Shown one piece after another: positions 1-54,799 of a DNA stretch of 64,000 nt. The stretch is from Amoebophrya sp. A120 (lineage: Eukaryota; Protista; Dinoflagellata): the NCBI GenBank assembly GCA_905178155.1, contig CAJINV010000011.1, forward strand, positions 3,375,077-3,439,076. The letters are read 5' to 3'. Made by a program: the position numbers and the translations under genes. The notes under the pieces are model-generated. The model saw nothing but the letters and a program-made list of their open reading frames with translations, did no database searches and was not told the DNA's origin. How positions within the stretch are numbered: position 1 is the first letter of the stretch; each line of letters opens with the position of its first letter.

Positions 1-3000
1 CTGGACGTGTGGCTGAACGCCACCGTGACCAGGGTCCTCTTCGCCCCCGACGGAGGTCGTGAGAACAACAGCGAGAAGCTATCAGAAGGAAAAATCCCCC
101 CTCCCCATATTGAACAGGTATGCTTCCGAAAATTTGCGTTGCTGATTTGAGGTCACAAATCACATTTGTCTTGCAAGAAGACAAGGGCAGAAGCTTCCGG
201 CCCATTATGGAAGCGATTTTTCATGCAGCTGTTGGGCCTAAAGCTAAAGGGGAGCCGTTTGCCATGCTGAACAACTAGACCCATAGGCCCCTACCTAGCC
301 TGGGGATCTGGCCGCAGTGCCTTCCTGCAATGCGAAGCTGATTCGTGTACACAAATCAAGCGTCAGAAATTCCGTTTTGATATGGGGGGGGATTTTTCCT
401 TGCAATAGAAGCGCGCCACGGGCATCGAGGTGCAGGTCGGGCCCCACGGGCTGAACAAGCTGCGCGTGTACGCGTCGCGGGAGATCGTGTTGTCCGCTGG
501 GGCGCTCGGGACGCCGAAAATCTTGACGCTGTCTATGACCCGCTCAGACCTTACAATCTCAACTGTTACAATAGAATCTGGAAATCTGTGATGCAAGAAC
601 TGAATGATCTAGCCTACTCCCATAGGATTGCGCATGAGAAGTTTCGGAGTCCCAAACCCACCTGAAATCCGGCAAAATTTGTATTGCGAAAAGCTCAATT
701 CTCTCTGCGTTCCTCATGCTCTTCATGCAATACAAATTGCAGATTCTATTGTAACGTTTGAGATTGTAGGGTTTGAGCAGGCCATACTGTCCGGAATTGC
801 CGATCCCTATGATTTGGGACGCCTCGGGATCCTATGACAGTGCACAACTCCCCTGCCCCCTTATTTGTCGTGCAAAATGGCAAGCCAACCCTTTGCCTCT
901 TGGCACTGTTTGCATGACAAGCTCGTCTGGTAGCCCAAATAGCACTACAATCCAGTGCAGATTTGTCATGCAAAACCGGCTTTCTTGCTGATGCTTGTAT
1001 TGCCGTTCATGCTATACAAATGAGGGGGAGGGGGAGTTGTGCACTCTGATAGATCCCGGTCACGCAGGCAAGTTACGCGGTGGGGAAATATTTGAAGGAC
1101 CACTTATGCTGGGTGGGGTATGTGATGATGGAAAAACACTTCGGGAACCGCGACGACTGTGACACCGGCATCATGGGCAGTGAGCGCTTGGGAATTTTTC
1201 TCAACATAACGAAAGAGGAAGACGTAGACGTCGGGGGCTTTGCGGCTGGTACTTCTAGTGGGGAAGATGAAGGTAGTAGTAATGCGAGGACAAGTAGTTC
1301 CAGTGGTAGTTTATCGCAGGTAGAGTCAGGACAGAATCCCGACGAGCCCGAAACCGAAGAGCAAAAAGCGGAGAAAGCCGAGAAGCGAAAGCAGGCCATG
1401 TGGGAGAACGTACTGCGGTACGAAGCGGAGGCTTCGAAGGACGACGCCAGCACGCTGACCTACGAGGAGCACGGCGTCATCGTGCCATCTAGAAATAATG
1501 CCGAACAACCGAATGGAAGTAGTGGCAAGGAAATAGAAACGAGCGATGTATCATTGCAAACAGAAAGAAATCCTTCCACAGTTGTTGAAGATCTTTCCCG
1601 CTTTACCGACGCCGCTGACCAGTTCGCCGTCGAGGGAGAATTGCGGCTGTTTTCTACCTGCTATGAGGAGAGCGAGCTGCAGAAACCCGGCACGCCAAGT
1701 GCGCAGGTCGTGGCGGAAAATAGTAGTAACCAGGATGAGGAGAAGAAAGACAAAGACTCGACGACCGCGCTGCATTACACCGTGGAGTTTGTGCAGATGC
1801 GGCCGAAGACCACGGGCCGGGTCTTCGTGAAATCGAATCGGCCCGAAGTGCCGCCAACCTTCGAGTACCCGCGCATCTTTCCCGAAGACTACGACTACCT
1901 GGCGCAGATGGGCAAGTGGATGGGGGACCAATTCGCGTCCACGGGCAGTACGCAGCCGGAGCCCATCACCGAACAGGCGTTCTCCCCCGGCGCGCTCGAG
2001 TCCGCGCGGGCGACCGCGCGCCTCTACCAGCACCCCTGCTGCTCGGCCGGGGTGACCCGCGTGCTCGACCAGGATCTCAGGGTAATGGGCGTGAAAAATC
2101 TGCGTGTGGCCGACGCCAGCGCGTGGGCGGAGATTCCGTCGAGCCACCTGGCGGCGCCGACGATGGCCTTAGGGTACCTCGCCGCCGAGTGGATGGTGCA
2201 CGACGCCGGGGGGTCGAGACAAAGCGTTTTCGACGAGGATAAGGAAGAACACCTGCATGAGCTTGAAATAAGCCTGGAGAGCAAGATATTGAAAAGCGTG
2301 ATTTTGGACGCGACGGCGCGGATGTTGCAAGAGGACGGGCTGCAGGAGCTGAAGCAGTACTTGGCAGTTCTGTTTGACGGGCGTATGTCGGTGGTCGACG
2401 TGCGGAACGATGAGGAACTGAACAACGGCCTGCGCTTGCGCGACGAGATTCTCCAACGCGTCGCGAACACCGTGATTGCGATCTTCCAGCAGGTGAAGAG
2501 CATCGCCGATCGGGATCGCCAGAGTATCAAATGCAAATGTGTCTGGGTCTGGAACAAAGCAACTTGTCATGCTAAATCTGAATCATGTAAAAAACTTGTG
2601 TTGCATGATTGCCAAAAGCTGTCCGCTTTTGACCTAATGCCAATCCAGAGGCAGTTTCTCATGCAGGATTTGCATGATAGAATTCTCACAGAATCTGTCA
2701 TGCTACGTCCTACATACCAGACCTCATGGGTCATGGAAAACCTGCATGACACCCAAACATATTTGCAACGCATACAGATGAGCTTGAGCAGGGAACAAAT
2801 AAACCCAGCGGCCGGCGTCGAAGTTGATGTACCGGAAATCACCACCGCTCACCTGGGGTTGGTTCGGGACGCGGTGCTGCAGCAGGTGTTTGACTCCAGC
2901 TTTCCCGACCCGAATCCCGAAGAGAAAGCGCGGGTGCGGGACCACAAAAATGTCATGAAAATCTTGCTTCGAGCGCGATTGGTGGTGGGGAACAAGAACG

Positions 3001-6457: not shown

Positions 6458-9400
6458 ATGGCGAGCCTGCAGGAGCGGACCGCTCCTGCCGCGGAGCGCT
6501 TAATCCAGTCCTTGCTCGAGCGCAATACCGTGAGGAAAAATCCCCCCTTCCAATGATATTAATTGAAATGGAAATCGGTGATGATCCAGGACTTGTGTAT
6601 TGATGTAGAGGCGGACCACTGCAGGTGGATGCAAGGCCTGGGCAGGGGTGTTTTGAGGTAGGCACTACGCAGGCCGCTCTCTGTCGAGTTGTAGGTCTAA
6701 CAGCGTCAGCACAAATCGCTTCCGTAAAAATGCACCGGGCTGGCTGGAGTGGCCCTGCTCTTGGTCTTGCAAGACAGACGCGATCATCTGAGGTCACAAA
6801 TCAGCGTTGCAAATTTATTTTAGGAGCATATGGCTGTATTTCAGAGCAGGGGGGGCTTATTTTTCCTCACAATACGGAAGGCGGGCGAGCTAGACGAAAA
6901 GCGGGCGCAGCGCATGAGCAGTATCATCGAAGGCATTTCTCTTCATCAGGGGCGCATGATGTTGCTGGCGGGCCGTCAACCGAATACAACGTCTGACATG
7001 GTGAAGCCAGGAGAACTGTCTTCTACTTGTTCGCCTTCTTCTCCTTCCGCGGAACTGCACCACCAGGCCAGCGCGCGGTGGTCCCAAGCAGCGAAGCAAG
7101 TGAAGCGGCGCATCTCCGGGGGCACGGAGGATTTGGACGCTAGTAACAAACTCCTATCTTCGCGGGGACTTAATACGGGACGAGCTGGAAAGGGCCTTCC
7201 TGCCGGAGTTGGAGGAGCTGGGCTGCGCGAGACAGTTGCCGCAGTGGCAGCTGCTTCGCCGAACAATCCCAGCCCAGCACTGGATTTTTCATTATCTACT
7301 TCGCAATTCCGGGCAAGAAGTAGTGCCGCCCTGTCGTCCACCAAAATAAACACAATGCCCTCGTCTACTTCCGTCAAACGGCAATACAGCACCCGCGGAG
7401 CTGCCCAGGGACTGCAACCGGAGCAGAACCTCCTCTGCCCGGCCGACATCTTCAACTACGTGGCCTTCGGGCAGGGTTCGCTCCGGCCGGACTCCCCGGA
7501 GGTGCAAGTCGCGACGGTGCTGTCTGGGGATGGTGCGCAGCACGTCGAGGAGGCCCAGGAGCGGCAGCTACAAACCGAGCGCGCTTCCCGGGGCTTCAGC
7601 ACCGCCGGACCGGGAAACCAGCACGCCCTGGACCTGGTGCGGCAGCGGTTCGGAGAGGAGAACTACGCGTGGCCCCCGCGGGGGTCTTCGAGTGTAGTTC
7701 TGGGTGGACATCAACAACATGGGCAGCAAGTGAACAACATCCCGACACCTCCTGCTCCAAAGGAGGTCGACGAAATAAAATCACAGCTGGGGACAGGAAC
7801 TACAACAAACGTAGTACGCAAGAACACGATCATGGCCGCTCCGCCTGCAGCTCCTTCGACCAGCAGGTTCAGCGACCGTATCCACGAAGTGCTGGCTCGC
7901 AACAGGGAGTTGCTACCCACTAAAATCCTCGTAGAGCAACATGATAATGATAAAAAGTACGACCAGACGGCGAAAGAAAATAATGACAATAATCTCCCAG
8001 AAGATAGTAAAAATCCGAGCAGCACGGACTTCTACACGACAATGCCGTCTGCCCCGGTGAAGACTTTTTTTCCGTCTCTCGCTCCGGCTATCCCTTCCAC
8101 GCTACATATTCACCTGAACGAGCAGAACCAAGTAACCGCGGGAAGTACAACTAGTAGAAGAACCTCTCCTCGTAGTAGTAGAGCCAGCCCGGTTCATCTT
8201 ACATCCTTCCGTGACGGCGCCAGTCCACCTTCTCACGCCGTCCAGATCCAGACGGTACATGACCGAACTATGACCTGCTCAAACGTTACAATCTCAAACG
8301 TTACAATAGAGTTTGGATTTTGCCTTGCATGACGAGCATGACAGACTCGGACAGCATTCCACTTTCTGCAGTACAAATTTCGCCAGATTGTAGTGCGGTT
8401 TGGGACTGCGGAACTTGTCATGCGCAAACCTATGAGAGTTGGCTACATAATGCATCCATTGCATCACAGATCTCGATATTCTATTGTAACGTTTGAGATT
8501 GTAACACCTGAGCAGGTTATACGAACGGGAGACCATGTAACCGTCTCCGTACCGATAAAAACGGGACACACGGCGCGACCTCTAGTTAATACTAGCCGGC
8601 AAAGCCCAATTCCGGCGAGCCCAATTTCGCGGCCGCGCGCGACGTTCTTGACCGTGGATGACCCAACCGGAAAAATTCCGCAGCTCATGCCGTGCCACAG
8701 CAGTCCGCGGCCGCTCCGCGCGGGTTCTAGAAGTAGTTCTTTGGAGCGCATTCGGCACGGTAATAAACCGGTCGTGACCTCGGTGTTTGGTGCGGATGGT
8801 GCGATGGTGACGTATGGCAAACCGGCCTTGCTTATCAAATGTAAAAATGTCTGGGTCGGGAAGAATGCAACTTGTGATGCTGTCTCTGCATTATACAAAA
8901 ATCTGTATTGCATGACCAGCAAGAGGGCTCCAGTTTGTGCTACATGGAGGGGGTATTTCTCATGCGGGATAGGCATCAGAAAGCCCGCTGAAAATCTGTG
9001 ATGCCAGGCTATGCATTAGTTATGCGTCATGTAAAATCTGCATGACATCCAGACCCAGACATTTTTACATTTGATATTGCTGCAGCCCACGTTGCGCTCG
9101 CCGTCGATGCGCGCGGGGGCCTCCGCAGCTTCGAGTGCAGCGAAGAAGTCTACTTCACGGTGGAGTACAACTAGCCCGGGGGCGAGGAGCGGGCGAGGGT
9201 CGGCGGGTGCCTCTTCACCGGCACTGTTCAGTCACCAGAGCTATCAAATGTGAAAATGTCTGGGTCTGGAAACTTGTGACGCTGGGTGGCGTCTCATGAT
9301 GAGGCCACAAGTGCTGGCTCAGCATGACAAGTTTCTGAGCTTCTAGGTGTTGCCTATTCTGCATGACAAACTGCGTTTCTGCATCACAGAAAAGTGGGGC

Positions 9401-12165: not shown

Positions 12166-15100
12166 ATGTCTCTGTACGCAAGCCGGGAACCGACCGACAT
12201 TCTGGGCTATCACTCCAGTCCGCAGAGGATAGAAGCGACTTTGCAGACGGATGTGGACCTGTACTTCCGGGGGGACACGGAAGAGTTGGTAGCGTCGCTG
12301 CGTCGCGGATCGCCGACGTCGGAAGGTGATAAAGAAGGGATCACGGGAAGTGGTGCTGCTGCGCTAGGGAACAACAACAAAGTGCGTGGAGCAAGCACGA
12401 AAAGAACGACGAGCCTTTCAACATCATCCTTTGCAGGCACACCTGCCGTCATCTCGCCCGTAGCTCTTCCGTTTGTCCACGAGAATGAGGAGGGCTTAGC
12501 GAGCAGTGTAGAGGACAAGTACATAGAGTTGTCTCACGATGGAAGTAGTAGAAGCCCTTCATCCAGCAACGAGGAAGTGGCTTCCACTCCGGAAACTCCG
12601 TGCTTCTACAAGCGGTGGGGGTCTCAGCGGAGTAGCCGGAGTTATAATTCCACGCTCTCAGGAGAAGTTTCCTCTTCAGGCGGTGGAAGAAGGTCGGCCG
12701 GTTCATCCTTGCTCGGGGCACGAAATGAGGACCACCTCGATCCGGACAGTGAAATTATGAGTGGGACCTACCAGTCGAGTGGAAGTAGTAACGCAGGAGC
12801 AGCTTCCAAGTCAAGTAGCGAGAAACACGGTAATATTGCACGGCTCAGAAGAAAAAAAAGCCGCAGCAATATACTTGGAAAGGGAAAAAATGATCTCCAG
12901 ACATCATCGTCGGTGTCCTCTTTTGCGAGCAGTGCTACTGCTGTCAGTGGGTTTTCCTCGGGGACGACGGGTAATTATCACCCGACACGAACAAACAACC
13001 CGGATGCATCGAAAGCGAAACGCGTAGGACTGTTGCGGAAAATTGTGAAGAATGTTGTTCTGCCGCTGTTGGAGCTCGGGAGAAGCAAATCCAAAAACCA
13101 CGAGCGAGCTGATGGAGGAATAAAAGAAGCCTCGTCTCGACGTCCGGGAGGTTTCAATACCGCTACGTCCTCGCGTGGCATCAACAAACACGGGATCGTG
13201 GACGAAGATCATGAGATGAATAAATCTTCAGGAAGACAAGCGGGAGAAGATCTTCATTCAATTTCAAGCAACGGCAGACGAAGAAGACCATCTCTGCCCC
13301 CCCGGCTCCGGTCTGCGAGGCACCTACTCGCGAGCCGAGAGTATGAACGACAGGTCGAAGCGCTGCTGCGCCAGTATTGGCAGGATTTCCAGATGAACGC
13401 GGAAGAAATGGAGCAGAAACTTGCTGAAGGAAGGCGAGAGAGGATCACTTGCACTGACGAAAAAGGGCAGCATCGCCATTCTAGGTCGTGTAGTACAAGA
13501 AGTGACGCCAAGGCCGCAAGGACCTCGGCAGAAGGAGAAGAGGAGGCACCATACGTTGATACTGGCCAGCACACGACTTCTTCCCGACCGAGTTCCACGG
13601 CCGGCGTTCAGACAGAGGAGACCGGGGATGTGGTCTCTCGGCTTGACCAGCACAGTAGCAGAGTGGCGATTTCTCACCTTCCTGAGGTGTTTGGAATGAT
13701 CGGGGGACGACAGCATACTTCCAGTGTAGAACGCCTTACTAGCAATGATATGGCTAGTATGTAGTGAGGTCACCGAACGGTTCTAACCGGGGAGTTTTTT
13801 TGCCACCCAGACAGCAAAACGGCCGTCAGTTTTCAAGCGGCCGGAAGCGTTTTCTGACATAAAAGATTTTCAATTACCAAGCGGCCGGGGCTTTGCCATC
13901 AAACAAGCCCGGTCGAAAACTATCGATTCGCACTTGATAAAACGACGCAGGAGAGCCGGCAAAAGGGGCGCCCTTCTGAGGCGCCCACCGCCTTGGTTTC
14001 TGGCGATTTGGGGCGCCCAAAAAGAGGCGCGCAAAACACGCGCCCGAAATCAGAACAGCGAAACAGCATGGCACGGCCGCGATTTCGGAGCATTTTGGGC
14101 AGCCGCGAAGGCGGCCGCCTTTCCGCCGGCTTCAGAGCCTGGGAAGCTTTGCAAAAAGCGCCGGCGGGAAAAATAAAAACGCAAAAGAGAAAAAGCGCGC
14201 CAGACGCGCAAAGCCAATCCGCATGCTATGGGTCCGGTTTCCCTTCGCTTTTTGGGCGCCCCCCGTGGCGCCCGGATCGGCCCCATAGCATGGGGCCTCG
14301 CTTTCGGAATGGAATTTCGGGAATTTCCCAAAATTTGCGATGTTTATCAAGCGGCCGCCATACCGTGCGGCCTAACGTTACTCGCGGCGGTATGGCGATC
14401 CCAGAAAAAGCAAAGCCGCGGCCAAGGCGATGGCCGGCAAGAAAACGCCCACGGCCTCACTACCTCCGCCCCGGCGGCTATATTTGGTACTATGAGTCAG
14501 AGCAAGGATTTGTACCCTCCAGCTGTTGACACCGACGAGCACGATGAGAAGAGCTCGGGGAGAAACAGCGGCGCAAGCGTCTTTAGAGCCTCCGACACAA
14601 AGAGAAGTCTGCCGTCCTTCGAAAAGAACATTGTGCAGCAGATTGCGAGCAACGCACAGCTGCACAACCGCCGGCTGCACAGCTTCTACCGGGATGAAAG
14701 CCGGCACACGCTGCGTGACTTGGTCCTTGCGCCGGAGTCCATGGATAGTAAGGACAAAAATCTAGCCGGTGCTATTACTTCCTTGGAACAAATAGATCCG
14801 GTAGATAGACTATCGACATCTACATCTAAGTCTAGTAACCAGGATCATCGCGTTGGAGGCTTTCATAGCGGTAGTGTAGTTGCAGGAGCACAGGAGCCGT
14901 TGGATCACGATGAACTACCAGAGGAGCCAGCAGAGAGAAGCATTTATGTCGATGCGGAAAACGAAAAGGAAAACAACACCACCGAGAACTCTGCCACCAG
15001 GCTCGAAGATGTTCTGCTGTCAAAGTCCGAAACAATTTTCTCTGCCAGGTGGGAAGCCGAAGTCGAGGAGGACTTTTTGCGGAGCCTGGACGACCTGAGC

Positions 15101-16180
15101 CCCATCGCGCACAAGGAATCTCCGCCACGGCCCTTTGATGGAGATTGTGCGGGGGGACGACCACAAGTGGCAACTTCTTTCGACGTCAAGTTGGAAGAAA
15201 ACGGGAACTACGGTGGACAACTACCACGGGAGCTGCAAGATGACGTCTCGCCGGGGCAAAATCCGAGTTTGGAGGACGATGCATATGCAAGACGATTTTT
15301 ACCACGGCGGGGGCTCTCTGAGACTACAAGAATATCGTCTGCTAGTACAAAAGCTGTCGCAGTTGGAAAAAGTTGTGCCACATCACCTGTAGTCGCCCAG
15401 TCGATAATTCAAAAATCGCGGCGCGCATCAAAACTAGCGCCAACCCTGTCGAAACAGACGGATTATGAATCCACTCGCTTGATAGAGACGGACGACGAGG
15501 AAAATGAGTTCGACGTGTCTGCCATGAGCGGAAAATTTACCTGGCCGCTCTCGTCCCCGTCGTGTAGTGCGTCGAGCAGAAGAACATCGTGCTCCACCCC
15601 TCGGGATGAACAAAAAGATGCGTCAACACCGGGGCGAGAAATAAGTACTAACAGCGACGATGAGGCGGACGCAAGAATCGTGGATGATGCACATACTCGG
15701 CGCTTTTCTCACGACCACGGTGGAAGAGAGGAAAGCAAGCGCTCAGATTGTTCCCTCCGGTCCGGGGAAAAACATCCGGGCAGGGTGGATTTCTACTGCA
15801 GGAGTGAAGTAGGCAGGAGCAGCTTCGGCCGAGAAAATTCTTTTGGAAGAAGAGCTTGTCCAGATGCTGTGCAGATGAATGACCACAACAGCTCCGTTAG
15901 GTCTTCTACTTCTCATCTTTCCATAGCATGTCGGCCTCGTCGTCACATGCCCTCGAGTAGTTCTTGTGACACGACCTCCGACCAAGATTTGTCCCACTCC
16001 AGTCGTCGGCGCCGTGAGCAGCAAGGAGTGGAACAAGCAGACCGCATGGCCTGTTGGCGGGAGTACCTCGCCGAGAAGCGGCGGGCTAGGGTTTTCTACA
16101 AAAAGTTGGAACGTTTGGAGCATGCCGAAGAGAGATTTCTCGCACTGGCGAGCGCCTTTGACGCGGGAAACTCAGTTTGA
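12166..16180 (+). CDS. Hypothetical Ser-rich protein; probably one gene split by the 733-bp repeat (12166-13756 + ~14490-16180), otherwise two genes
   Basis: The stop codon of ORF 12166 lies inside the repeat; removing 13757-14489 fuses both ORFs in frame. Confidence 0.5.
13757..14489 (+). mobile_element. 733-bp non-autonomous repeat, copy 1 (GTATGTAGTGAGG...CCTCACTAC-hairpin-TATATTTGGTA)
   Basis: Highly similar to 21114-21846 and 33826-~34405; sub-terminal IR; ccgcc-cc-ggcgg stem-loop near the 3' end. Confidence 0.85.
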
Positions 16181-16586
16181 TGAAAATAAAAAGGCCCACA
16201 TTTTGATCATACCTGAAATGGCTTGATGCGAAAAAATTTTCTTTTTCAACACTTGCTTCCTTCAATTTCTTCGCTTTGACTTACAACTTTCTCACCACGA
16301 CAGTTATGTGTGTTTCATCTGGTCTTTGTCGCGTTTTCTCTTACGAACTGTTGAGCGAGCATGTTACTATGTTTGAGGACAACTTCCTCGACGTTATCGT
16401 TTAAACGTACCGGCAGTCCACTTCGCATCATGCTTCACAATGCTGGTCGTGCGAAATCAAGTACAAATTCGTGAGAACAACAAGGATGTTTTGTTGTTTT
16501 GAGTCCACTCGTGGTCCATTTTTGCCCCGCGAGGACCACGAGCCCCCGTGGTCGTAGGTTTCTTGCCGTAAGTCATTCTTCTCAGG

Positions 16587-19500
16587 ATGAGCAAAAATCG
16601 TTCCCGCCGGTCGGCGCGTGAGTCGATCGGCGACTTCATTCGTCGCGCCAGCCGGGAGCTGCTTGGCTTTCCCGGAGCAGGTTCCGAAAAGGAGACGGAC
16701 AGGGAGGACGAGGAGCGGTACCAGAAAGCCTACATAGACGCGAACATTCACAAATACCAGCGGAAGCGCAGGCGGAGAGATGATGTAATTGTTGACAAGG
16801 ATGTTCTTGAACAAGAAACTGGACAACAAGAAGTAGTAGAACCACGGCCGCCAAATAACGATCGGAAAAGAGGTGGAAAAAATAAGCATGTGAAAAAGCC
16901 GCGGACCGATTCGTACGATTTTTACCACGATTTAGTCGAAACCCGCATACGGAATTCGCACCGGAATAAAGAACATCAAAGAAAGCCGCAAAGGAAAAAT
17001 AAGCGAGGTTTCAGCAAGTCGTCGTCTACTTCTAGAAACGGTTCTTCAAAGAGAAAGAAGAGTGGCCGCAACAAACGAAGTAAAGACGAGGCAGCTTCGA
17101 ACAACGTGGAAGATCTGGTCGTGGAAGAGTTTGTGAATTGTGCGACGCAGAAAGATCCGAAAAAAGCGGAGTTTTATTCCCGAGGCTCGCGGTCGGGATC
17201 TGTTGTGGAGGAAGGGGAGGGACGGGACGAGCAGAGGGGGGAGCGGGATCTTCATCCGGACGGTGCGGACCTAGCACTACCACGAGCAGGTCGAGCGGCT
17301 GTAGATGAAACAGACCCTGAAGTAGAACAGGATTTTGAGAGTCAGCAAGTTCTTGCCTCTGGAGGCTCATCTTCCCGAAAGAAAAAATCCTCGAACAGGG
17401 GAGCATCTTCGAGTAGGAGAAGTGAATCAAGAACAGGATCTTCCAGGAGCACTCGAGAGGATGTTGAAGCCTCGTCTCCGTCACACAAAATAAAGGGTGC
17501 AAGGAAACAACGAGAAGATGTCGCTACCAAGAGCGTCAATGACCACCTTAACGACCGCGAGTACGACGATATCCCGGCACGACGGGAGCAGCACCGCAGT
17601 CGTGCGAGGAAGCGATCGGATCGGTCAACGTCTTCGTCTCGGCGGAGTAGCAAGACGGGCCGCCGAAGAAAATCTGGATCTGGTCGGCGGTCGTCGAGTA
17701 CGCAGGAACGGCGACAAGAATCGCGTTCCCTCGACGACTTCATCTTGCAAGATGAAGCGAACGCCGGAAATAAAGCTCCCTACTCGAACGGCAAAGCGGA
17801 ACGTAGTAGGTCCACTTCGGGAGTTGAAGCCCCAGGAACTGCATCGAGAAAAAGCAAGAACTCCTCGTCATCGTCGCGCCGTGAAGACGTGGGGAGGCCG
17901 CGGCACCGGAATACTAAAACAAGCAAAGAACCAAGGAGCAAAGGAAAAGACAGCAGGCGAATTTCTGTTGATGGACGAAGGAGCGGGGTGGAGGACGAGG
18001 GCTCGGTACTCGCATCTTCAGACGGAGAAGTACTAGATCATGTACACGACCCGCAAAATAGAACACGTGCACGTCGTCGTGGCTCGTCGTCACCCGGTTG
18101 TAGTTCTACTTCTGTGGAGTTTCTTTCACCCCCACCTCCTGCAAAAAGGACCACTTCGCGGGTTTCTTTCGCCGACGACGTCGAGGAGGCAAAGGTTTTT
18201 GCCGCAGATATTCCAGCTCACGACGTCGATCTATCCAGCGACACAGAGGTTCTGCTGCCCGCGAAGCCACCCCCGAAGCGGCAACCGTCCGTTGAACAAG
18301 ACCGGAAAAGAATATCTTTGTACGGGCTGGACCGGAATGGTTGGTTAGATCACGATCGTCGCAGCTCTGCAGATCAGCCCGTATCATGCGCTGCTCCTTC
18401 AGTAGGGCAAAAGTCGACGTCCAGCACTGGAACAAAGGATAGTAGTACAGTTCGTCGTGCAGGACGGGTCACGGAACAATCTTGGGGGGAACTGAACAGA
18501 GAGCAGCTAGACGCCGAGGAGCACCAGAAAAACATGAAAATAAATGCGACCGACCACCACCTGGAACTACATCAAGCCGGCACACCGGTATCAGAGCAGT
18601 CGACCGTTGCTCCTCCGCTGTCAACTACGTCGTCTCGAGCGGTGTCACCCGCGATGACCACGGTCGCGCCATTGATGTGTTCTCGCGCAGCCACAACTAC
18701 AACACTCGGAGCAGGCAGTAGGTCCTCGTCAACCTCCACATCGCCCCCGTCGAAAGTAAAAATCTACTCCGAGTCCACAACGACACGCTCTTTCACCCCT
18801 ATCTGCGGCGGGTGCGGGGAACCCATCGGGGAGAATCAGCGGGAGAAAGTTGTGTCTGGCGTCTCCTTTCACGATTCCTGTTTTGGCTGTACCAGTTGCG
18901 GAGAGGCGTTTGACTGCAAAAGAGCGTTTTTCGTCGGTGACAGGAAGTCCCTGTGCCAGGACTGCGCGGGCAGTTTGGTGGAGCGGAGTTCGGGTGAAAA
19001 GAGCCCGGAAACCGCCACGGCTTTTGTGCTGAGCAACTTCCAGATCTGTCAGGTGGTGCAGACCAATGGAAAAGGTACTTCTGAGCTATGCTATGAATGA
19101 ATGTATACAACTTCTCACGCGAGCTACAAAGATGTAGATGAATCAAGATCACAGAATTGCAGCCTTCTGCGGCCATGGATATAACCGCACTGGTTTTAGT
19201 ACTTGTCCGATTGTAAGACTTTTCAATGCGTCAGAAAGGAAATCGAGATTCGTGGATGAAGGAAGAGAAACATCAGGTGGTGCCGGGCGGCTGTCAAGGA
19301 ACGACACCAAGTTGCACCTGCACATTATCCCCGCGGATGCAAGCGCCTTGACGAATCCCCTGTTTCATCCTCAAAAGCCAGCTTCTGCTCCGAGAAGTCC
19401 GAGCAAACCGTCGGCACTGGAGGAGGTGAGGACAGCGACTGACAGGAGCATGCAGACGGAACAAGTTTTTGTGGCGTCCAGGCCGCCGCCTGTTTGCGAT

Positions 19501-22500
19501 GCGGCGGTCAACGTCGACCTTCCGCCGCTTGGAAAAAATTCGGTATCTTCCGCCGCGCCGATGACGATTCCCGTTGGCAATATTAAGCGCGAACCGTCCG
19601 TCACGCCGCGGGACAGTCGGCAGCTCGTTACTGGTGCTTTTTCTGTGGCGGAGTCCGAGTCTGTCGAGTCTGCGGTGCCGCAAGGAACAGTAATTGTCGA
19701 CGTCGATGAGAACAATTTACCTGCTTCTGCAGTTGGCGTTGTGGACGAGCCAACGGTTTCTACTGCAACTGTAGCACCTGCTGCAGGAAAAGATGTCTAC
19801 GCAAAGACAGCCACCTCGGTCGCGGGAGAGACGAACGTTTTCGATGAAGAAGCGAAACAGGAGGAGGTACAAGAATGCGCGCCAGCGTACGAATCCCGAG
19901 CGGCTGACAGTGACACCAAAGAAACCACGGAACCAGTCGGGTTTGCAGGAGGTGCAAGTGCTGCAATTAGTGCATGCGAAGAAGCCGACGTTCTTCCCGC
20001 AGTACTACCAATACCGCTTGTTGCACAAACTCACCCTTCGCTACAACCTGCAGAAGTTCCGGTTGCGGCCACTACTAATGTGCTCGAGCCAGCGGGAGTA
20101 AGTTCGGTGATGAGACGAACAGAGCAGAAGGAATGCGCAACACATGACGACACCCCTGCAGCGCAAGAACAGGCGCAGGTTCAAAATGTCGAAGAACCCT
20201 CTGTCATCCCCGGTCTCGTCGTTCCCGCGGAAATAAACAGGGTCTCTTCAACATCATCTGCGGCAGTGGTACCTCCACGACCGCAGGCTGCTTCACATCA
20301 GCCTGGCGTGGTCAGCTCTACCACTTGTAACACAGACAAATTTGCGGCTTTTCGGGCCAGGGTCAACATCATATGGATTGCAAAAATGTCTGGGTCTGGA
20401 TGAAGCTTGTGATGCTAAAATGTGGATGATGGAAACAGTTCCGAATGCAACACAGCATGACGACTTTTCAGAACGCTTTCTCATACTATGAGATAAACTG
20501 CGTTTTTGCGTGTACAAAAGAGGCCGCGACTTTTGTTGGCTATGCAATACAGATTTCCTAGGTATGGAGAGCTAGCATTACAAGTTGCAAGCTTCCAGAC
20601 CCAGACATTTTTGCATTTGATACATCAGCGGTTTCGACAAATATTTTGCGGACATTGGGCTGACCGAGAAGTTGCAGAACCTCGAAGCCGCAGTTTTGGA
20701 GCAAACAAAAAGCGTCTTCGCCCAGCGAGAGGAAAGGATCAAGGAAAAGCGGGCGAACATGCAGAAGAAATTCTCCCGCGTTGCGCACAAAGTGGCTGCG
20801 TTTTTTCAAGAAGAAGCGAAGCAGCTGGTGGACGCGTGTGCGAGGGAAAATTCGCCGACGAAACGGGACGCGTTGATCCTGGAGTTCGTCGAAAACAAGG
20901 AGCGGGTAGTGGCGGAAATTCAAAAGAATGAAAACTTTCTACTCAGAAAGAGGAAAGAGCCGTTGGCGGGGCGAGTAGAGGAGCATCGTGCGAAGAGCGC
21001 CAACAAACTAGGCACGGGAGCTCCTCCTGCTGCTTCTCGTCGGGGGGAAAGTAAGAATAAGTTTCGATTTCTCGGCGCCCGTGAGGACCATGCAAGTGAC
21101 CACGACCCGGATGGTATGTAGTGAGGTCACCGAACGGTTCTAACCGGGGAGTTTTTTTGACACCCAGACAGCAAAATGGCCGGCAGTTTTCAAGCGGCCG
21201 GAAGTGTTTTTGAGCATAAAAAGTTTTCACTTATCAAGCGGCCGGGGCGTCTGCGGCAAAATAGCCCGGGCGGATTCTATCGATTCGCACTGGATAAAAC
21301 GACGCAGGGGAGCCGGCAAAAGGGGCGCCCTTCTGAGGCGCCCACCGCCTTAGTTTCTGGCGGTTTGGGGCGCCCAAAAAGGAGCGCGCAAAAAACGCGC
21401 CCAAAATCAGAACAGCGAAACAGCATGGCACGGCCGCGATTTCGGAGCATTTTGGGCGGCCGCGAAAGCGGCAGCCTTTTCGCCGGTTTTAGAGCCTGGG
21501 GAGCTTTGCAAAAGGCGCCGGCGTGAAAAATAAAAACGCGAAAAATAAAAAGCGCGCCAGACGCGCAAAGCCAACCCGCATGCTATGGGCCCGGTTTTTC
21601 TTCGCTTTTTGGGCGCCCCCCGTGGCACCCGGATCGGCCCCATAGCATCGGGGCTGGCTTTCGAAAAGGAATTTTGGAAATGTGCCAAAGTTTGCGACGT
21701 TTCCCACGTGGCCGCCATACCGTGCGGCATAACGTTACTCACGGCGGTATGGCGAGCCCATAAAAAGCAAAGCCGCGGCCACGGCTGCGGTCGGCAAAAA
21801 AACGCCCACGACCTCACTACCCCCGCCCCGGCGGCTATATTTGGTACTTTTCCAAAAAGCACGACCAGACTTTCGGGGCCGCATTTATTCGCCGGCAGAG
21901 GGCGAAGCTTTCCCGCCTCCATCATCGCAAGCGCGCTCAACGCGGAGACCTACGCGGAGTATCGGAAGTCTTTGGCTTTTCAGGAGCCTGGTGGAACAAG
22001 AACAGCACCGGAAGTTGCAGTGGATCAGGCTGCGCTCCTTCGTGCTGCTACGGTGCCTCTCGCGTCGGGGAAAAGGACTACTTTTGCCGGGGCGACGTCT
22101 GCAGGGGCAACGTCTACGGCCCCAGAGATCGAACCCGGCAGCCAGAATGGTCCGCGGACTCAACGACCTCACGGGCGCCAGGCTCAGACACCTTCGCAGG
22201 GAGAAAATTCTTGTCACGGTGAAAATTCAAGTTATGGTGCTGCAAATATTTATTTTCCCATTACCGGCGGCGGCGACTGTCATCGCGCTGCCGACCATCG
22301 GCCAGCACGACCCTTGAAGATGCCCGCCGGACGAGGAGATCAAGCTGCACATCAAAGCCCGAGCGTAACTGCTTCTGTGCCGCCCGCCATCCCGCCGAAC
22401 TCTCCCCGCCTTCACGAGCTCTTTCAGGACTGCTTGACAGCGAGCGCGGAGCACGCACGAAAAACTGTGCAACAGTTCAGAAATAGAAATACTACCACCT

Positions 22501-23990
22501 CGAGGGGTAGACTATTGTTCTCACCGGTTCTACTTCCAACTGAGGATATTCATTCGGCACACGCGAGTGGTCGACAGAGTGGCACAAAAGCTGCACGAGG
22601 GGAGAACTCCACTCAGGGCCAAAACGATCATGTCAAAGTCCACCTTAAAAACCACCGGAAGCCTATGCTAACGACAACAAGCAGAGCTGCACCAGCACCA
22701 GATGACGCCAACACTGCTGACCAGATAGGAACGAAGGCTGGTTGTTTTTCGGTAGCAAGCAGCGCCCTACAACATTCAGTGCCCTGTCTTGATGCACCTG
22801 TTGCACCTGTACCGCACGAATCTGCTCCTGCTGCTGCAGTTCGGGACGAGGTGGGTCTGCATGAGGAAAGCGGATCATTCCTGCATACAACTACCCCCGC
22901 GCCCGGTGCAGCACTTCGACCTCCGCGCGCAACTGCGAGGAACACCTACCGTCGCAGATCACGACTCGACTTGCTTCAAGTGGACAGTTGTACACGCAAA
23001 AATGTTGACCACGACGGGGGGCTGCACGATGAGCCGGTAGTTTACGACCATAAAGAAGATCATAGCGGCTCAGACAGCCACAGCTGCGGGCAGCAACAAC
23101 AGGTCGCGCAATACGTCGAAGAAAGGCCGCCGCGCGTCCGGAAAAAAACCTTTCGCCGCAGGGACCCAAGCAAGCTGTTCGCGATTGATTTTTGGCAGTC
23201 AAAACTGCAGGAGTATGAGTCCCAGATGTCGACGAGTAACGTTGATCAGGCCCAGGAGCGACAACTTCAGCCGCAAAATATCATGAGCCAGCAGGAAGTC
23301 GTTGAAACCGCTTTCATCCCGCTGCAGCAAAAAGCAGCCTACCATGATTTGACGGAGCTCACCGTTCTTCCGGTGAAATTTGACTCCACGAGAATCGCGA
23401 GTAAAAGGGACGAGGACTCCGCGAGGTTTCCCACCATCGTTGAGCAGGAGGACGCTCGTGGAACCGTCGCGGCTGAAGGAGATGAGAATACAACGAACTA
23501 TGCGCAGGAACAAGGCCGAGCCACGCCCCTGATTTTGCGGAAGGACTACGATTTCGGCAAGAAGGATTTAGTCGGGAGAAGCAACAAGAATTTCCTGTCT
23601 TTGGAACAGGAGGCTGCAATGATGAGTCGGCAGAAGGAAATGGCTTTTGACGTCTTAGTCGACGAAAATAGTAATATGCACGAGGACCAGCACGTTCACT
23701 TTGGCGGTCGAGTTGAATATCAACATGGATTGCGAGGACCCTCCGGTGCTCATGCTCTCGTTCGACACGAGATGCACGATATTCCTCACCTCCCACTGGG
23801 CGTTCCGGCGACCTACCAGGGCGATTTCTCGAGCATGGCCGCGGACCTTCTGCAGCAAATGCGAGTTTCGGAGAAGCGCGCGGCGCAAAGCGCTGGTTTG
23901 GTGCGGAGAGAGCGCCAAGCGCAAGCCAGATTGACCTCGCAGTTGTCCTCTAGGCGTGAATCCGGGGGTCATGCGGGGGTAGTTTCGTAA
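16587..23990 (+). CDS. Large low-complexity protein with one LIM domain (GT-AG intron 19075-19234, introner at 20372, 733-bp repeat at 21114); the portion after 21846 may be a separate gene
   Basis: CGGCGEPIG...FHDSCFGCTSCGEAF...LCQDC is a LIM zinc-finger pattern (~18800-18966); phase-compatible joins link ORFs 16587, 19138, 20672 and 21585. Confidence 0.6.
20372..20622. mobile_element. Introner, family A; DR CATCA
   Basis: TIR plus perfect DR; joins RVNI-SGFDKY. Confidence 0.9.
21114..21846 (+). mobile_element. 733-bp non-autonomous repeat, copy 2
   Basis: Same ends and length as copy 1; 11-bp IR gtagtgaggtc/gacctcactac. Confidence 0.85.
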
Positions 23991-24496
23991 GGAAGGAACG
24001 GCTCATCCCTTCAGGGTGATGATGCGAATGATATTTGTGTGCATTGATGCCTTGCACTGATCACGTTCGTAGTTGTCGAAAATGAATAAAACTGCGGACA
24101 CAAAAATTTGGCTGAGACTTGATGTAGTTGTTCTACTTCAAGACGAATACGAAAATGAAAAAAGAGTATCTAAATGATCTATAGAAAAGAGACACCGGGT
24201 CATGTAATGAATGTTGCGTCCATGATCGCTCCCGGCTTATTGGATGTTCCGTCCATCGCTCCCGGCGTCTTGTTCGCGGTGCGTTGGTATCCTCGTTCTG
24301 GCAGCAGCACTGCGACGACTGAGTGCTGCCGGTTGTAACCTTTTCGAAGGACAAACATTTTGAAATCGTTTTGTCGGTTCGACGAGGTAGTTGTCGCGCA
24401 AAAAAATGACCATGTAGTCCTGTGGGATCCCGCGGTGATCTCCCGCAGAGCCGGGATCGCGAATATGAAATCTTCGACACCCGTACTACAAGAAGG

Positions 24497-27400
24497 ATGC
24501 TAGAATTGCTGCAGCCGCGGCAACGAAGGCCCGCGAGAGAGGAGATGGAGAATCGAGCCGCGCAAGGCCGCATTCGTGGTTTCTTCCTTGCAAGCATTTG
24601 TCTCTGCGCCGTTGGCATCAATTTGTTCATCTCCGGGTGGGTGGCACACGCGGTCTCTCAAAACCAGGTCGACGCAGGAGAGACGTATACGCGGGCACTA
24701 GCGGTAGCTGGCAAGGATAGCCGTGAAGCTGCCGACGCAGACGAGAATGCTGAGGAGTCAACTGACACTTCTGCGGCGGCCGCGCTACCGCCACCAAGTG
24801 GAGGAGCGAAAACGTTCGCTGCTCGACAAGTTGCAGCTGAAGTAGATCATCATGGACTATCTTCGCTTGTTCCAGAAAGCAGCGCTGCTGGAGTTGCACC
24901 AGGAGCGGGACCGGCCACGGAGGGGACCACGCGCGGTCCGTCGCAAGTGGTAGCAACAGCAGCTTCGGGAACGGTTTCGTTTGTGCAACAAGGGCGTGCG
25001 ACCAACCTTGGCAGTACGAGCATAGAGACGGATTTTTCCGAGGGAGATGAGTCATCGAACCTGGTTCGTCGTGGAACCGATGCTAAGCTGCAGCACGGCG
25101 AGCGTTTCTCACCGTGGTCTGTAGGAGGACCAGCTGTATCTTCGGACGAAGACGACGGAAAGAACATCACGATAGAAAAGGCACTAAAAAATGCTACGGC
25201 TACAACTAATGCAGCGTCTGTTGTTGATTCGGTCGCAGGTAGTTCATCTCGAAGCGAACTGGTACGTGGATTGAACCGAAGGCAAAAACGTGAGGTGATT
25301 GTGGACACGTGCATCCGCCAAATTTACGAGGATATGCAAGTCGGTTGGAGCTCGGACGACGATCTCGCTGCCCCGCAGGAAAAGCTGTTGAGCGTCGCTC
25401 TGATGCGACGGTTCGTGAATGTGACCAGTGGAGAATTTCGCTTCTCGCTCGTTAGAGATTTTGCGGAGCGACAAGTTGCGGCGGGCCGGGTGGTTTGCCA
25501 ATCACGCCTTCCTATCCGCCCAGCATTTTTCCCGGAAATGTCTTTCTTCCTGTCGACTACGGACGGGTCGCTCGTCGTCAAAAATGACGGGGACGAAGGC
25601 AAAATGGGACCACCCAACTGGCTGGACCAGACGCAGCGTTTCTTCGAGCATGCGTTCGACCTCGACGGGGACAAGCTGGTTGCGGTCTACGAACCGGGCC
25701 TGCAGTGTCCAAGTCTGGCGGCGCCTGGCCTCCCCCCGCCGGAGGAGGACCCTAGTACCCCGGAAAGAGTACTACCTGGACCTCTACTGGGCCCCGCCGC
25801 CGCAAGGTTTGACCTGTTCCAGTGTTTGCTGCATCAGTCCGATTGGTTCTCCCGCGCTTCGGTCAATACGGTCTCGATTCAGGAACAGCATGACCAGCAG
25901 AGCTTTTCCGCGTTGGAATTGGAGCAGCAGTTGTTCATGATGCAACGGCGGAGCCACCCTTCCATTGACGAAAATGATCTTCGGTTTTTGAAGTCGCATT
26001 TCCACGATAAGCATCACCACTTGGGGCATAAAATTGATGAGTTCGCAGAGTCCGTACCAACAATCAAGGGCGTCCTCCAAAAGCATAACCTGGCTGACAA
26101 GGTTGTCTACATTCTCCAAAAGTTGATGGTCGGAGAAATCTACACGGCGCGGAACGGCAAAAACTTCCACCACAGCACGCTTGCGTTGGACTTACGGTGG
26201 CGAAAAGAGAAAGACCGTAATGAAAATACAGAAAATGAACGCTGCCGAGAGCTGCTGTTGGATGTAGTGCACGGGATAGCCTCCGCACTTGGTGTCGAAG
26301 ATCAGGAACGAGTTTTCTTCGGTTACTTGTACGCCAAACTGTACGCCAAAAAAAAAGGTGAGGACCCGCGGTGGCATTGGGACGAGGAAATCAAAACGCG
26401 TCACAAAGCAACAGATGAGCAGGGGCGTTCTTTCATGTACAACGACTTGCCGAGATTCTTTATCACGTTCAAGCGAGCTTTTGACCTGCAGGACCCGGAA
26501 CTCGATGTTGAGGACCAGGGAGAGTTTCTCCACGATTTTAAAAATGGCAACATTGTAGGTCGAGGGAACGGTGGTGGTTGTAGTGTGCACAATCGATTCC
26601 GAGTCTTCATTGCCCGTAAGGCTTTTCCCGCGCTTGTGTGGAAGAATGCAGAGTTGCTCGTGGAAAAAGTGAAGAAGGCGGCGCATGCGCATCAGCAGGA
26701 GATAGAAAAGCAGCACGCGGCGGAACAAGCAGAACATGACCGTGTGCTTCAGAGAGCTCGCGACCACCAGCACAAAAAAGAACAACAGGAGCGATTGCCT
26801 CGGCACAGCGCAGCACCCAAAGCGGCCCCGCAGCCAGCTTTCATCACAACGCTAAAGGGCGTTGAGCACGAGGCTTTCTTCTTCTGGAGCTTGGACGGCG
26901 CCGAGGTGAACAGATTGGGGGACAGCGGCTGGGACGACGGCGGCAAAAGAGACGAATACAAACGCCTGGCGTACGGTGTGCTGCGCGAGTTCCTCTACGC
27001 GATTCATATTCTGGTAGTCCACGCACGGAGCTTCGACTCGACGACTTCGAGTCGGTTTTCGTTTTCCTCGGATAGAAGTGTGATGCCTCATATTGAATCA
27101 CGTGTGAATGAAGAGAAAAATACGCCGGTATACAACGCACGCCTTTACTACGAGTGTTCCCACAAATACTATTTTGATCACGTCCACAACCTCCGATACG
27201 ATTACGACGTCGAGGAGAGGACTAAACTTGAAGCATGTTACCGCAACCGTCCGTTCGAGCATCTACTGCACCAGCTGGACTATCAACTGCAAAAATGTCT
27301 GAGTCTGGAAGATTGCAACTTGTCATGCTGTTTTTGGACTCTAAAAAAATTTGTATTGCATGACCAGCAATAGGGGCACAGTTTGTGCTACGCGGAAAGG

Positions 27401-27946
27401 GCATTTCTCATGCGGAAGGTGCATCAGGAAGCCCTCTAAAAGTCTGCGATGCTAGGTCATGCATTACAGGCGTCATGTGTCATGAGAAACATGCATGACA
27501 AACTTGGCAATCTTCCAGACCCAGACATTTTTGCATTTGATATGGACGACAAAAACACGAAGTCGAAAAGGGAACACAATTGGGGTGTCATCTTCAGCCA
27601 TGATGCCTTCGAGAAGATGACCGATGAGCAGTCTGAGATGGCCGATGCCCAGCTGGATCATTATTTTTTGATGCTCACCGAAAGCGCGGAAGCGCTGGGT
27701 ATGGCAACGGATGAGGGCGAGGGTGATGTCGACCACTACTGGAAGCCGCTGCGTTCGCTTTGGTCAAAAACAAAAAAATTCTTCTTCCATCGGAGAAAAG
27801 GTATAATGAAAATAATGAGAGAAGAGCTACAGGCGACAGCCGAGGCGCAGCAGCAGGAAGAAAAAGCCCGCGGACTTGTCGATGAGCGAACTTGGAGTGC
27901 GCATCTGGCTCACCGAACAAAATCTTTGAACCAAATAACCTTCTAG
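24497..27946 (+). CDS. Hypothetical ~1000-aa protein with an N-terminal hydrophobic (TM/signal-anchor) segment; one introner
   Basis: Long ORF; FFLASICLCAVGINLFISGWVA; removing the element at 27281 joins HQLD-DKNTKS and runs to the stop at 27946. Confidence 0.7.
27281..27542. mobile_element. Introner, family A; DR TGGAC
   Basis: TIR plus perfect DR. Confidence 0.9.
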
Positions 27947-31562: not shown

Positions 31563-34500
31563 ATGTCGGCTTCCACTTCCCCTCCGCGAACCCCCGCTAG
31601 CACGGCTAGCAAACCGGGCATGTTGCCCGGCGCGAAAATGGTGCTCCCAAAGCCGCCGGTTCCCAGCGGCCTAGCGACGCCGACCAAAGCCGCCCAGGAA
31701 GCGGAGCGGGCGAACCGCAGCTCGGTGACGGACTTTACGAAGTTGATCCGGGGTGCGAGCGCGGTGCGCGAAGAGGCGTTTACGTTGAACGTGAAAATCG
31801 CCTATTTGAACAAAACCGTGAAATACGCCTTCAACCGGAGGGAAAAGGTGTCCGACCAGGTGGAGCGGTTGTGCGGCGTGCGCGACGTGCCCTACGACGA
31901 GGACGCAAACTACCAAGTTTTGCTTCGCATGGCGCCGAAGCACCTGCAGAAGTACGCCATCGGGGAAGAAGATTTCTACACTTTGGAAGATAACGCGGAC
32001 GTCCGACTAGTCGGGGGCTCGGATTTTGTCAACACCGCCCTGCAAAAAATCAGCGAAATCTCCTCGGGGTTTGCGGCTTCCGCCCCCGGGGAGAAGCTCG
32101 AGCAAAGCTCACAGGACGAGTTGCTCCGCTGGTGCGACTCGTTACTCAGGAATTGCGGGATAGTGGGTACTACTAGGAGACTCCATAAATTATTTTTGGC
32201 TTTTCTACTTTGCGTTAACTCTAAAGAGCACGACACTAAAACTAATTCAAATCCAATTCAAACCGATTTCAAATCTGCGGGCTATTGCAGCCTTTGGGCT
32301 TGTGGCAGGTGTGTTGGCCTAGAGTGGCCGCGATCCGCTTATTGTGTCGCGTCTGCCCTCTTCCGGTCATTATGTGACACGAGAATTCTCGGCAAAGCGG
32401 GTTTTCCTGGTAAGGTTTCTAACGATTGCGGGGCCATGTGTGTAGGCCATCGCGCGGAGGACCGTGCTTGACTTTTGTGATCCCTGTTCATGTGGTTCAT
32501 AGCATCAGCAGGGACACAACCTTGCCCGTGGTGTTGCCTCCGCCCGTATTCCCATGGTGCACGATTCACAGTCGAAAGGGGTCGGGGCTCGAGCGCTTCT
32601 GGAGACACACTCCAACAGGGCAGCCATTTCTTTTGGCTCGTGTTCTGGCAAGGAAGAGGCTGGCGGCCGCCGTATTTATTCTTCGCTGTGCCAAGCAATG
32701 AGCTTCGGGCACTCGCTCGCCCCCATTTTCCGAACTCCCTTTTTGTCAGGGACATGCCATTGCTGGAGGAATTGGCTGGGGGGGCGGTAGCTTTTTACGA
32801 CGACTGGAGGCAACTGACACCTGTGGCAACATTTCGCCTCTGCTGCTATTGCGCTCGCATGCATTATCCTAAAGGCGGCGCGTTCCGGCTGTGAAGACCG
32901 GCGACTTTCTGTCGATATGTGTTTGGCCTCTCCACTTCTGTTTTTCAAACGGAGATCAAATTTGAAAGGAGTTGGAAATAAGTTAGAAAAAAGTTAGGAC
33001 CTGGAATGTAATATGGCTAACTTTTTTCTACCTCTTTCTAACTTTTTTCTAACTTCAAACCAATTTCGATTTGAAATTGGTCTCGGACCTCAATTTCGAT
33101 TTGAAATTGACCAGAGTTGCCAATTTCGATTTGAAATGGGCCCGGGAGGCCAATTTCGATTTGAAATTGGATTGGTTGGTGGATTTCGATTTGAAATTTC
33201 TTCGGGGTTTCAATTTTGGCCCACAATTGCCAGCGATTGCCCTTCGATTCCGTATCGTCGAGCCATCTTGTAGAGCCCCCAAGCGCCTCGCATCAGGCCC
33301 CGTCGTTATTAGGCCCCACGAGATGTGGCGGGGTCGTCGGCTTCGACATGCGGCTGTCAAAGGCACTGAGGGTTCCACAGATGCGTTGGCTTCTTTGTCC
33401 GATCGATTTCGATCGTGGATGGAGGTAAGTTTCTCTTCTTGTGAGCATTTGATCCTTGGGCGCCTTTGTGCCGGCTTCTCTGGGGGTGGTAGGTTTTCTA
33501 GTGGCGGCGTTGTAACATAGCTGGAGCGTGTAGCCGAGCAAGATGGCTTTCATGGATGGTTGAGGTAGCTCCGCTGGTGCGACTCGTTACTCAGGAATTG
33601 CGGGATAGTCGGTAGAAGCAGACTTTGCATATGTTTTTTTTGGCTTGTTTTCTTTGCGCTCAATGTCAAGATGAGCTTCTTGTTGTTTTCCTTTTCCATG
33701 TTTCATTATAGTGGCACCATGAGGAAGGAGCACACGGCACTTGTTGTCAACATGCATTGACACAAAGAATTCCATTTCATCAAGCACTGAAGTCTTCAAA
33801 GCGCTCCCAGTCTCCAGCAAATATTGTATGTAGTGAGGTCACCGAACGGTTCTAACCAGGGAGTTTTTTTGACACCTACCGTGAAAAACGACCGGCAGTT
33901 TTCAAGCGGCCGGAGGTGTTTTTGAGCATAAAAAGTTTTCACCTATCAAGCGGCCGGGGCGTTTGCGGCAAAAAGGCCCGGTCGAAAACTATCGATTCGC
34001 ACTGGATAAAACGACGCAGGGGAGCCGGCAAAACGGGCGCCCTTCTGAGGCGCCCGCCGCCTTGGTTTCTGGCGATTCGGGGCGCCCAAAAAGGGGCGCG
34101 CAAAAAACGCGCCCAAAATCAGAACAGCGAAACAGCATGGCGCGGAAGCGATTTCGGAGCATTTTGGGCGGCCGCGAAAGCGGCCGCCTTTTCGCCGGTT
34201 TGAGAGCCTGGGAAGCTTTGCAAAAAGCGCCGGCGTGAAAAATAAAAACGCGGAAAATAAAAAGCGCCCCAGACGCGCAAAGCCAACCCGCATGCTATGG
34301 GCCCGCTTTTTCTTCGCTTTTTGGGCGCCCCCCGTGGCACCCAGATCGGCCCCATAGCATCGGGGCTGGCTTTCGGAAAGGAATTTTGGAAATGTGCCAA
34401 AATTTGTGCGAGTTGCTCCCAGGACGAGTTGCTCCGCTGGTGCGACTCGTTACTCAGGAATTGCGGGATAGTGGGTACTAGCACACTGCATAATTTTTGT

Positions 34501-54696: not shown

Positions 54697-54799
54697 AACC
54701 CTAGACGCAGTTAACTTACGCCACCGCGATGTCGTAAATTACGATCAATGCAGCAGCAGCTGTAGAATGCCACTCCTAAATTTCATGAGGAGGCTCAAT

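Follow-up and report, generated by a model that had tools for sequence, protein, structure and literature searches.

A 730-bp non-coding element of Amoebophrya sp. A120, skipped in frame from two genes without an AG acceptor and likely of Helitron2/Helentron type

More than 60% of Amoebophrya introns lack GT-AG termini, and how they are removed is described as an open question in the sections of PMC7789003 used here. The terminal inverted repeat (TIR) introners reported in those sections have non-canonical junctions located in short direct repeats, and an inverted-repeat stem joins their ends. A 2025 catalogue (PMC12130899, Dataset S2) lists 58 introner families for strain A120, 33 rows of which we compared. 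Rolling-circle elements are also represented in it, as the portion consulted gives Helitron-derived introners for Suillus subalutaceus (fam5 and fam6), Nemania serpens (fam1) and Polarella glacialis (fam15), which use GT-AG (4/4; 20/20) or mostly AG (43/49). None of the 18 'helitron' entries found in Dataset S2 stands in an Amoebophrya row of that portion, and no title or abstract opening retrieved from the literature on introners, Helitrons and Amoebophrya calls an Amoebophrya introner a Helitron. Here we describe an element in a 64,000-nt stretch of Amoebophrya sp. A120 (contig CAJINV010000011.1, positions 3,375,077 to 3,439,076; hereafter the window) that shares intron formation and a probable rolling-circle origin with the latter group, and differs from it in having no AG at either of its observed junctions.

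With respect to its ends, the closest described elements are those of the Helitron2 group, which in the passages available from the cited papers carry an inverted repeat of 8–15 bp whose 3′ arm lies 20–30 bp inside the element, upstream of a hairpin (PMC3627910). The 5′ arm begins 0–2 bp from the 5′ end in Helitron2 and 2–4 nt from it in Helentron (PMC3627910, PMC4067079; further features in PMC11417382). Insertion is usually into a T-T target, from which the Fusarium elements FoHeli1/2 depart with a target of TNAT-A/T and an end of ATATTTT (PMC5148889, in part). With moderate confidence, we view the window element as a 730-bp non-coding unit that inserts at T-N-GTA-Y, that transcripts skip in frame without use of an AG acceptor, and whose mobility is likely that of a non-autonomous rolling-circle element of the Helitron2/Helentron type. 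The coordinates of its copies, ends and host genes are collected in Table 1.

Table 1. Coordinates of the element copies, their ends and the associated host features (window numbering).
Feature	Position	Strand	Details
Element copy 1	13757..14486	+	730 nt; boundary can shift 0-3 nt rightward, GTA at both ends
Element copy 2	21114..21843	+	730 nt
Copy 3	33826..34406	+	first 581 nt only, 3′ side cut; abuts another short repeat
Inverted repeat 5′ arm, copy 1	13761..13771	+	11 bp, asymmetric
Inverted repeat 3′ arm, copy 1	14453..14463	+	one G-U pair; ends 23 nt inside 3′ end
Inverted repeat 5′ arm, copy 2	21118..21128	+	
Inverted repeat 3′ arm, copy 2	21810..21820	+	
3′ GC hairpin, copy 1	14466..14477	+	sequence identical in 9/9 full copies
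3′ GC hairpin, copy 2	21823..21834	+	
Target-site GTA, copy 1	14487..14489	+	stays in exon
Target-site GTA, copy 2	21844..21846	+	
Skipped stretch, copy 1	13746..14486	+	739 nt; 3 cut positions, 13746-14484 to 13748-14486
Host gene 1	12169..16180	+	1090 codons with 739-nt skip, 531 without
Host gene 2	16587..23990	+	exon 1 encodes a LIM domain; the three RNA joints give 2071 codons, retention of copy 2 gives 1358
Control: ordinary GT-AG intron	19075..19276	+	skipped in X3
Control: TIR-type introner	20372..20622	+	variable 5-bp duplication; 256 nt skipped in X3 and X4
Paralogous empty site for the L007 copy	970..1051	-	90% over 82 nt, ungapped, one GTA at junction

Skipping of the element was observed in contigs from a single sample (runs X3–X6) that behave as RNA. 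Specifically, a GT-AG intron is skipped in X3 and a TIR introner in both X3 and X4, and these two runs have zero depth at 24168–24348, where the DNA-like run X1 has a depth of 48. For copy 2, an X6 contig departs behind 21116 and continues through 30 of 30 letters of 21847–21876, a stretch unique in the window. The skip is exactly 730 nt with six equivalent cut positions (21112–21841 to 21117–21846), one of which can be read as GT..TG and removes the exact element; another contig, from X3, halts at the same base 21116 with 69 letters unplaced. For copy 1, one X5 contig, at a depth of 8.33 and with 210 nt on its shorter side, joins 13745 to 14485, the base at which an X3 contig also begins. This skip takes 9 extra exon bases and leaves the message three codons shorter. 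An X4 contig terminates exactly at 13759, which hints at a second, 730-nt splice form of copy 1, and a shared 3′ cut within 2 nt of the element end fits both junctions.

These joints differ from those anticipated in a preliminary description of the locus, where a 733-nt repeat was thought to be spliced from its built-in GTATGT donor, possibly to a host AG (ccag at 14521–14522). No 733-nt junction is among the joints seen, which measure 739 and 730 nt. The GTATGT is not supported as a sufficient donor, as the copy-1 contig is cut 9 nt upstream of it, and the host AG would maintain the frame, yet none of the three joints leads to 14523. More generally, no possible cut ends in AG, whether among the three for copy 1 or the six for copy 2, and the nearest AG lies at least 46 nt inside or at least 9 nt outside.

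Both junctions preserve the reading frame, and a repeated element is thus skipped in frame in two unrelated genes, as is characteristic of introners. Removal would restore the pre-insertion coding sequence exactly for copy 2 and leave it short of 9 exon bases for copy 1. Neither half of host gene 1 gave a Pfam match, and protein searches for annotated or orthologous forms of the two host genes found nothing, including no empty orthologue of either. In-frame removal from both genes upholds the earlier proposal of a spliced mobile element tolerated in exons, at least for the window copies; only 2 of 7 full copies outside the window look exonic. Similarly, the stop codon supplied at phase 1 and the joining of frames by a deletion of 3n+1 bases, 733 nt included, hold for both window copies but do not constitute a rule, as one outside copy (L001) lies at phase 0.

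To place these two insertions among their relatives, we draw on nine loci (L001–L009) matched in a metagenome collection with a 20-base pattern from the element 5′ end. Seven hold full copies and two run off their contigs, and the contigs belong to one assembly set that also bears the window's other repeat families. Counts of full copies (n = 9) therefore comprise two from the window and seven from outside, and the 12 sequenced copies cited below include partial ones. In the window, BLAST recovered the two full copies, 89.9% identical in alignment (13757–14489 versus 21114–21846), and the 3′-truncated third copy, as had been described. Pairwise identity among full copies is 82–96%, and the span from GTATG to TATATTTG is 730 nt in seven of the nine, with 725 and 718 nt in the others. 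The abrupt end of copy 3 coincides with the start of one unit of a short repeat with a near-invariant 43-nt core (three units: 32107–32205, 33565–33671 and 34415–34509), and this end possibly arose by recombination between such units. Upstream of copy 3, at 33060–33229, a 30-nt unit is repeated five times in tandem, and every unit contains a conserved near-palindromic 20-mer.

The element appears to be both abundant and non-coding. In X1, summed depth reaches 12,801–32,940 in three bins wholly inside the element versus 43–58 on unique DNA; this sum is not a copy number, and the element is present in many copies, perhaps hundreds. Both filled junctions of copy 2 are found in X1 at single-copy depth. 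The longest stop-free frame ranges from 105 to 239 codons and differs among the nine full copies, an inconsistency on which a protein-coding element was rejected, and Rfam gave no match over 13600–22000. Matches in a viral collection (3 and 5) were set aside as chance, none running more than 1 nt beyond the search pattern. A raw RNA run (X9) has no depth on the unique exons, yet about 70 of its reads match the part of the element at window positions 21172–21211 with four changes, which suggests that a different strain or species carries a related element.

The length of 730 nt follows from empty sites. When the joined flanks of all nine full copies were compared with the window and the loci, junction-spanning matches emerged for two (L006 and L007), the only copies nested in other repeats; these are two further families, relatives of window 39968–40255 and 850–1051. 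The empty site for L006 is a paralogue in L004 that is ungapped at the junction and, like that for L007, holds one GTA. The net insertion is therefore 730 nt rather than the 733 originally given, one GTA belongs to the target, and a 733-nt element owning both GTAs is rejected.

The flanks define a target that is fixed and directional. A T occupies position −2 in 12/12 sequenced copies (P about 1e-6, corrected for positions and bases) and in 3/3 distinct 5′ flanks among RNA and DNA contig loose ends, and position −1 is unconstrained, with all four bases occurring. The right-side trinucleotide is GTA in seven of nine full copies (GCA once, ATA once), and the base at +4 is a pyrimidine in 8/9 (C in 4, T in 4, A in 1). 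The resulting consensus, T-N-GTA-Y, is non-palindromic and mirrors the element's own 3′ end. A CT shared by both window copies after the 3′ GTA, once considered possibly part of the element, is excluded from it by the variable +4 base and by loose ends in RNA that show TT, TA, GC and CT there. As had been noted, a variable 5-bp duplication is absent. Over its last 20 nt, the element carries 0/180 changes compared with 2/27 sites in the GTA that follows (Fisher p about 0.017, calculated by hand), and, because of this difference, sequence comparison favours target preference or mimicry over duplication as the source of GTA at both ends.

In terms of structure, an 11-bp asymmetric inverted repeat is present in 9/9 full copies, whereas chance alone would give about 8e-5 pairs of this kind in end windows of equal size; this bears out the inverted copy previously seen near the 3′ end. 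Its arms lie 1–4 nt from the left and 23–26 nt from the right end, the range being set by the sliding boundary. Arm length and spacing both agree with the published Helitron2/Helentron pattern, as originally suggested. The predicted pairing probability of the repeat is 0.95–1.0 in eight of nine copies and 0.71 in copy 2, and the whole-element transcript is predicted to fold far beyond shuffled controls (z −5.3 and −5.6). In copy 1, the element 3′ tail can pair with the first 7 of the skipped exon bases; a 7-mer of this kind is found 20 times in the 64 kb. This 7-bp stem is seen in one fold (centroid) and is absent with 40-nt flanks and in a two-strand model, so its predicted role in placing the shifted cut is a context-dependent lead only.

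Taken together, these ends resemble those of Helitron2/Helentron elements (HLE2: DINE-1, HINEs, FoHeli1/2) in the short asymmetric inverted repeat followed by a putative 3′ hairpin, in the probable lack of a true duplication and in the fixed non-palindromic target. The 3′ end ATATTTG and target TNGTA may be set beside the corresponding FoHeli1/2 motifs given above. In contrast to that group, the target is GTA-based, the hairpins are weak, no RepHel partner was identified here and the element is removed from mRNA. Considered apart from its other properties, mobility of the Helitron2 type is a proposal that we hold somewhat more firmly than the combined description.

The same ends can be read in other ways. 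A Crypton-like tyrosine-recombinase element, whose circle junction TG-GTA-T would recombine with T-N-GTA-Y and whose transcript would be spliced as described above, is unlikely in our estimation. Its circle junction does agree with the target consensus, and Cryptons carry a short direct repeat at each end and lack terminal inverted repeats in the part of PMC3212892 consulted. Those direct repeats are 4–6 bp, however, and here there are 3 bp (often extendable by the −2 T and the +4 Y), with a free −1 position and a mismatch in 2/9 copies; an asymmetric inverted repeat and a 3′ hairpin are also absent from the Crypton features described in that part.

Just as unlikely is a TIR (DDE) element that moves by cut and paste and duplicates a strict GTA target as 3 bp, the form in which the 2025 dataset has it. 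Single-GTA empty sites fit a 3-bp duplication equally well, and the catalogue row for family fam26 gives a TIR of 10 and a duplication of 3 (PMC12130899, rows compared). Against this, the inverted repeat is not terminal, the target is not palindromic, and the two trinucleotides differ in 2/9 copies. The window also offers a direct comparison, as its true TIR elements show variable 5-bp duplications in 8/8 paired copies. Like those reported for A120 (PMC7789003, sections used), these open with TAT, followed by seven bases and then an A run, and their splicing falls within short direct repeats; one of them, at 20372–20622, is spliced in host gene 2 alongside copy 2. The present element shares with Amoebophrya TIR introners the non-canonical junctions in short direct repeats and the stem joining the ends, and departs from those of the window in its asymmetric ends, its fixed motif and a length about three times greater.

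A third possibility concerns the junctions rather than the transposon class. Reverse transcriptase may have switched template across a stable hairpin at 2–5 nt of microhomology, the genes being disrupted or spliced elsewhere. Both junctions do lie in short repeats without AG, the fold is highly stable, the junction of copy 1 does not coincide with the element end, and each is represented by one contig. We nonetheless judge this quite improbable, as both junctions keep the frame of long genes whose frames would otherwise end about halfway and about two-thirds of the way along. The joined contig is close in depth to the exon contig that follows it in X5 (12.1), and the X3 contig starts at the same 14485. 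In addition, going by the fam26 splice-site counts, 30/32 introns would share one orientation, which would suggest selection on real splicing.

Membership in another HUH group, such as one that is Replitron-like, is very improbable. In Replitrons the terminal direct repeats are short, the targets are orientation-specific and the right end bears a hairpin (PMC10288648, in part), but in Replitron-1 both repeats are element-owned, compared with one target-derived GTA here, and the Replitron paper text nowhere uses the term 'inverted repeat'. A CACTA affiliation was rejected as the motif is in the wrong orientation.

A number of observations weigh against the Helitron2-type intron that we propose. 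Because the usual T-T target is replaced by T-N-GTA-Y and no Rep-helicase partner was found (no Helitron domain in 21 window open reading frames scanned; a genome-wide Rep-helicase search was not made), Helitron2 membership, as judged from sequence features, is unproven. The 2025 catalogue assigns fam26 to the TIR DNA class, with a 3-bp duplication. The 5′ and 3′ terminal hairpins are conserved yet fold no better than shuffles (z 0.16–0.64); the GC stem-loop that had been reported behind the inverted copy is present, but it folds as 4 bp with a 4-nt loop and is not above shuffles (z 0.34 and 0.64). No compensatory change occurs in the inverted repeat of the nine full copies. With respect to duplication, the search pattern fixed a 5′ GTA in L001–L009, so matching non-GTA duplications would escape it, and in X1 two contigs begin at 21115 versus eight at 21114, with further joints hidden. 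Each RNA junction is known from one contig, all four runs represent one sample, and their RNA status is guessed, no run listed being on record as RNA; reverse transcriptase, too, can create junctions at short repeats that surround a strong hairpin. Finally, frame is restored over at least 150 nt on both sides in only two of the seven outside full copies (L001 at phase 0, L003 at phase 1), no more than in a crude null of mismatched flank pairs (14/72). It follows that the element is a general transposon that becomes an intron on landing in an exon, many copies being non-exonic or within other repeats.

Under the Helitron2-type reading, the element ends and the target would share a short motif at which an HUH Rep-helicase, encoded elsewhere, makes its nicks. 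The element end would then mimic the target, placing GTA on both sides without true duplication. When the element lies in an exon in sense orientation, pairing of the 11-bp inverted repeat is predicted to fold the transcript into a large stem-loop, bringing the ends together, and non-canonical host splicing would cut at or near them, yielding the pre-insertion message (copy 2) or one with three codons fewer (copy 1). Removal at the element ends would in turn allow sense-strand exonic insertions to be tolerated as new introns. A stronger version, which we regard as doubtful, is that, through nick-site mimicry, any insertion into an exon on the sense strand becomes a precise intron needing neither duplication nor AG, and that it would be spliced by a strand-specific, structure-guided route in a host that reportedly lacks U1. 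Copy 1 would then be a natural mutant, its cut moved 9 nt to the base of the competing 7-bp stem and bypassing a perfect GTATGT.

The element was first put forward as a possible second intron-forming element; intron-forming it is, but the family is probably already listed. In the rows compared in PMC12130899, A120 fam26 has a length of 730 bp, a 10-bp inverted repeat, a 3-bp end repeat and 32 introns, is labelled 'TIR DNA, Unknown' with both splice sites co-opted, and uses donors GT (20), AT (10) and other (2) with non-canonical acceptors in 32/32. Since GT..TG and AT..GT are both sense-strand cuts of the present element, these counts would imply one orientation. Length, an inverted repeat of about 10, a 3-bp end repeat and AG-less acceptors are alike in the two, and the element is very probably fam26, matched by features and not by sequence: the table rows compared carry no sequence, and motif searches of 14 supplement files of PMC12130899 gave no sequence match. 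The asymmetric ends and T-N-GTA-Y target of the element do not feature in the fam26 row as consulted. Family fam71 (721–730 bp; GT in 4/4, non-canonical acceptor in 4/4) looks like a sister of fam26, and the divergent 718-bp copy at L003 3001–3718 (81%, ends conserved) may belong to it. Our additions to the catalogue are likely the corrected ends, the target rule, a probable reclassification as a rolling-circle element and exact AG-less removal.

Elsewhere in the window, TIR elements of 244–302 bp starting with TAT are abundant (3121–3379, 8833–9076, 20372–20622, 27281–27542, 28773–29041, 35796–36049, 48007–48308, 57159–57419 and more). Further short repeat families with inverted ends, common to L001–L007, lie at 4850–4990, 29129–29425, 37455–37604, 39968–40255 and 60123–60389. 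Two adjoining genes with ankyrin and formin FH2 domains and Pro/Gly-rich repeats (36735–39162 and 44539–49666) are probably paralogous. A single open reading frame at 52430–53830 fuses a bacterial-type solute-binding SBP_bac_3 domain to a ketopantoate reductase domain, and a GC-rich island at 54700–57000 (0.60–0.70 in 55001–57000) has no second copy in the window or the loci.

The family offers a uniform test substrate: its target is fixed, its 3′ end does not vary, its stem is asymmetric, and probably dozens of its copies are intronic and differ in their flanks. The family also suggests that some introners classed as 'TIR, unknown' may be rolling-circle elements. If the proposed route holds, introns would be gained seamlessly in this organism, without target duplication.

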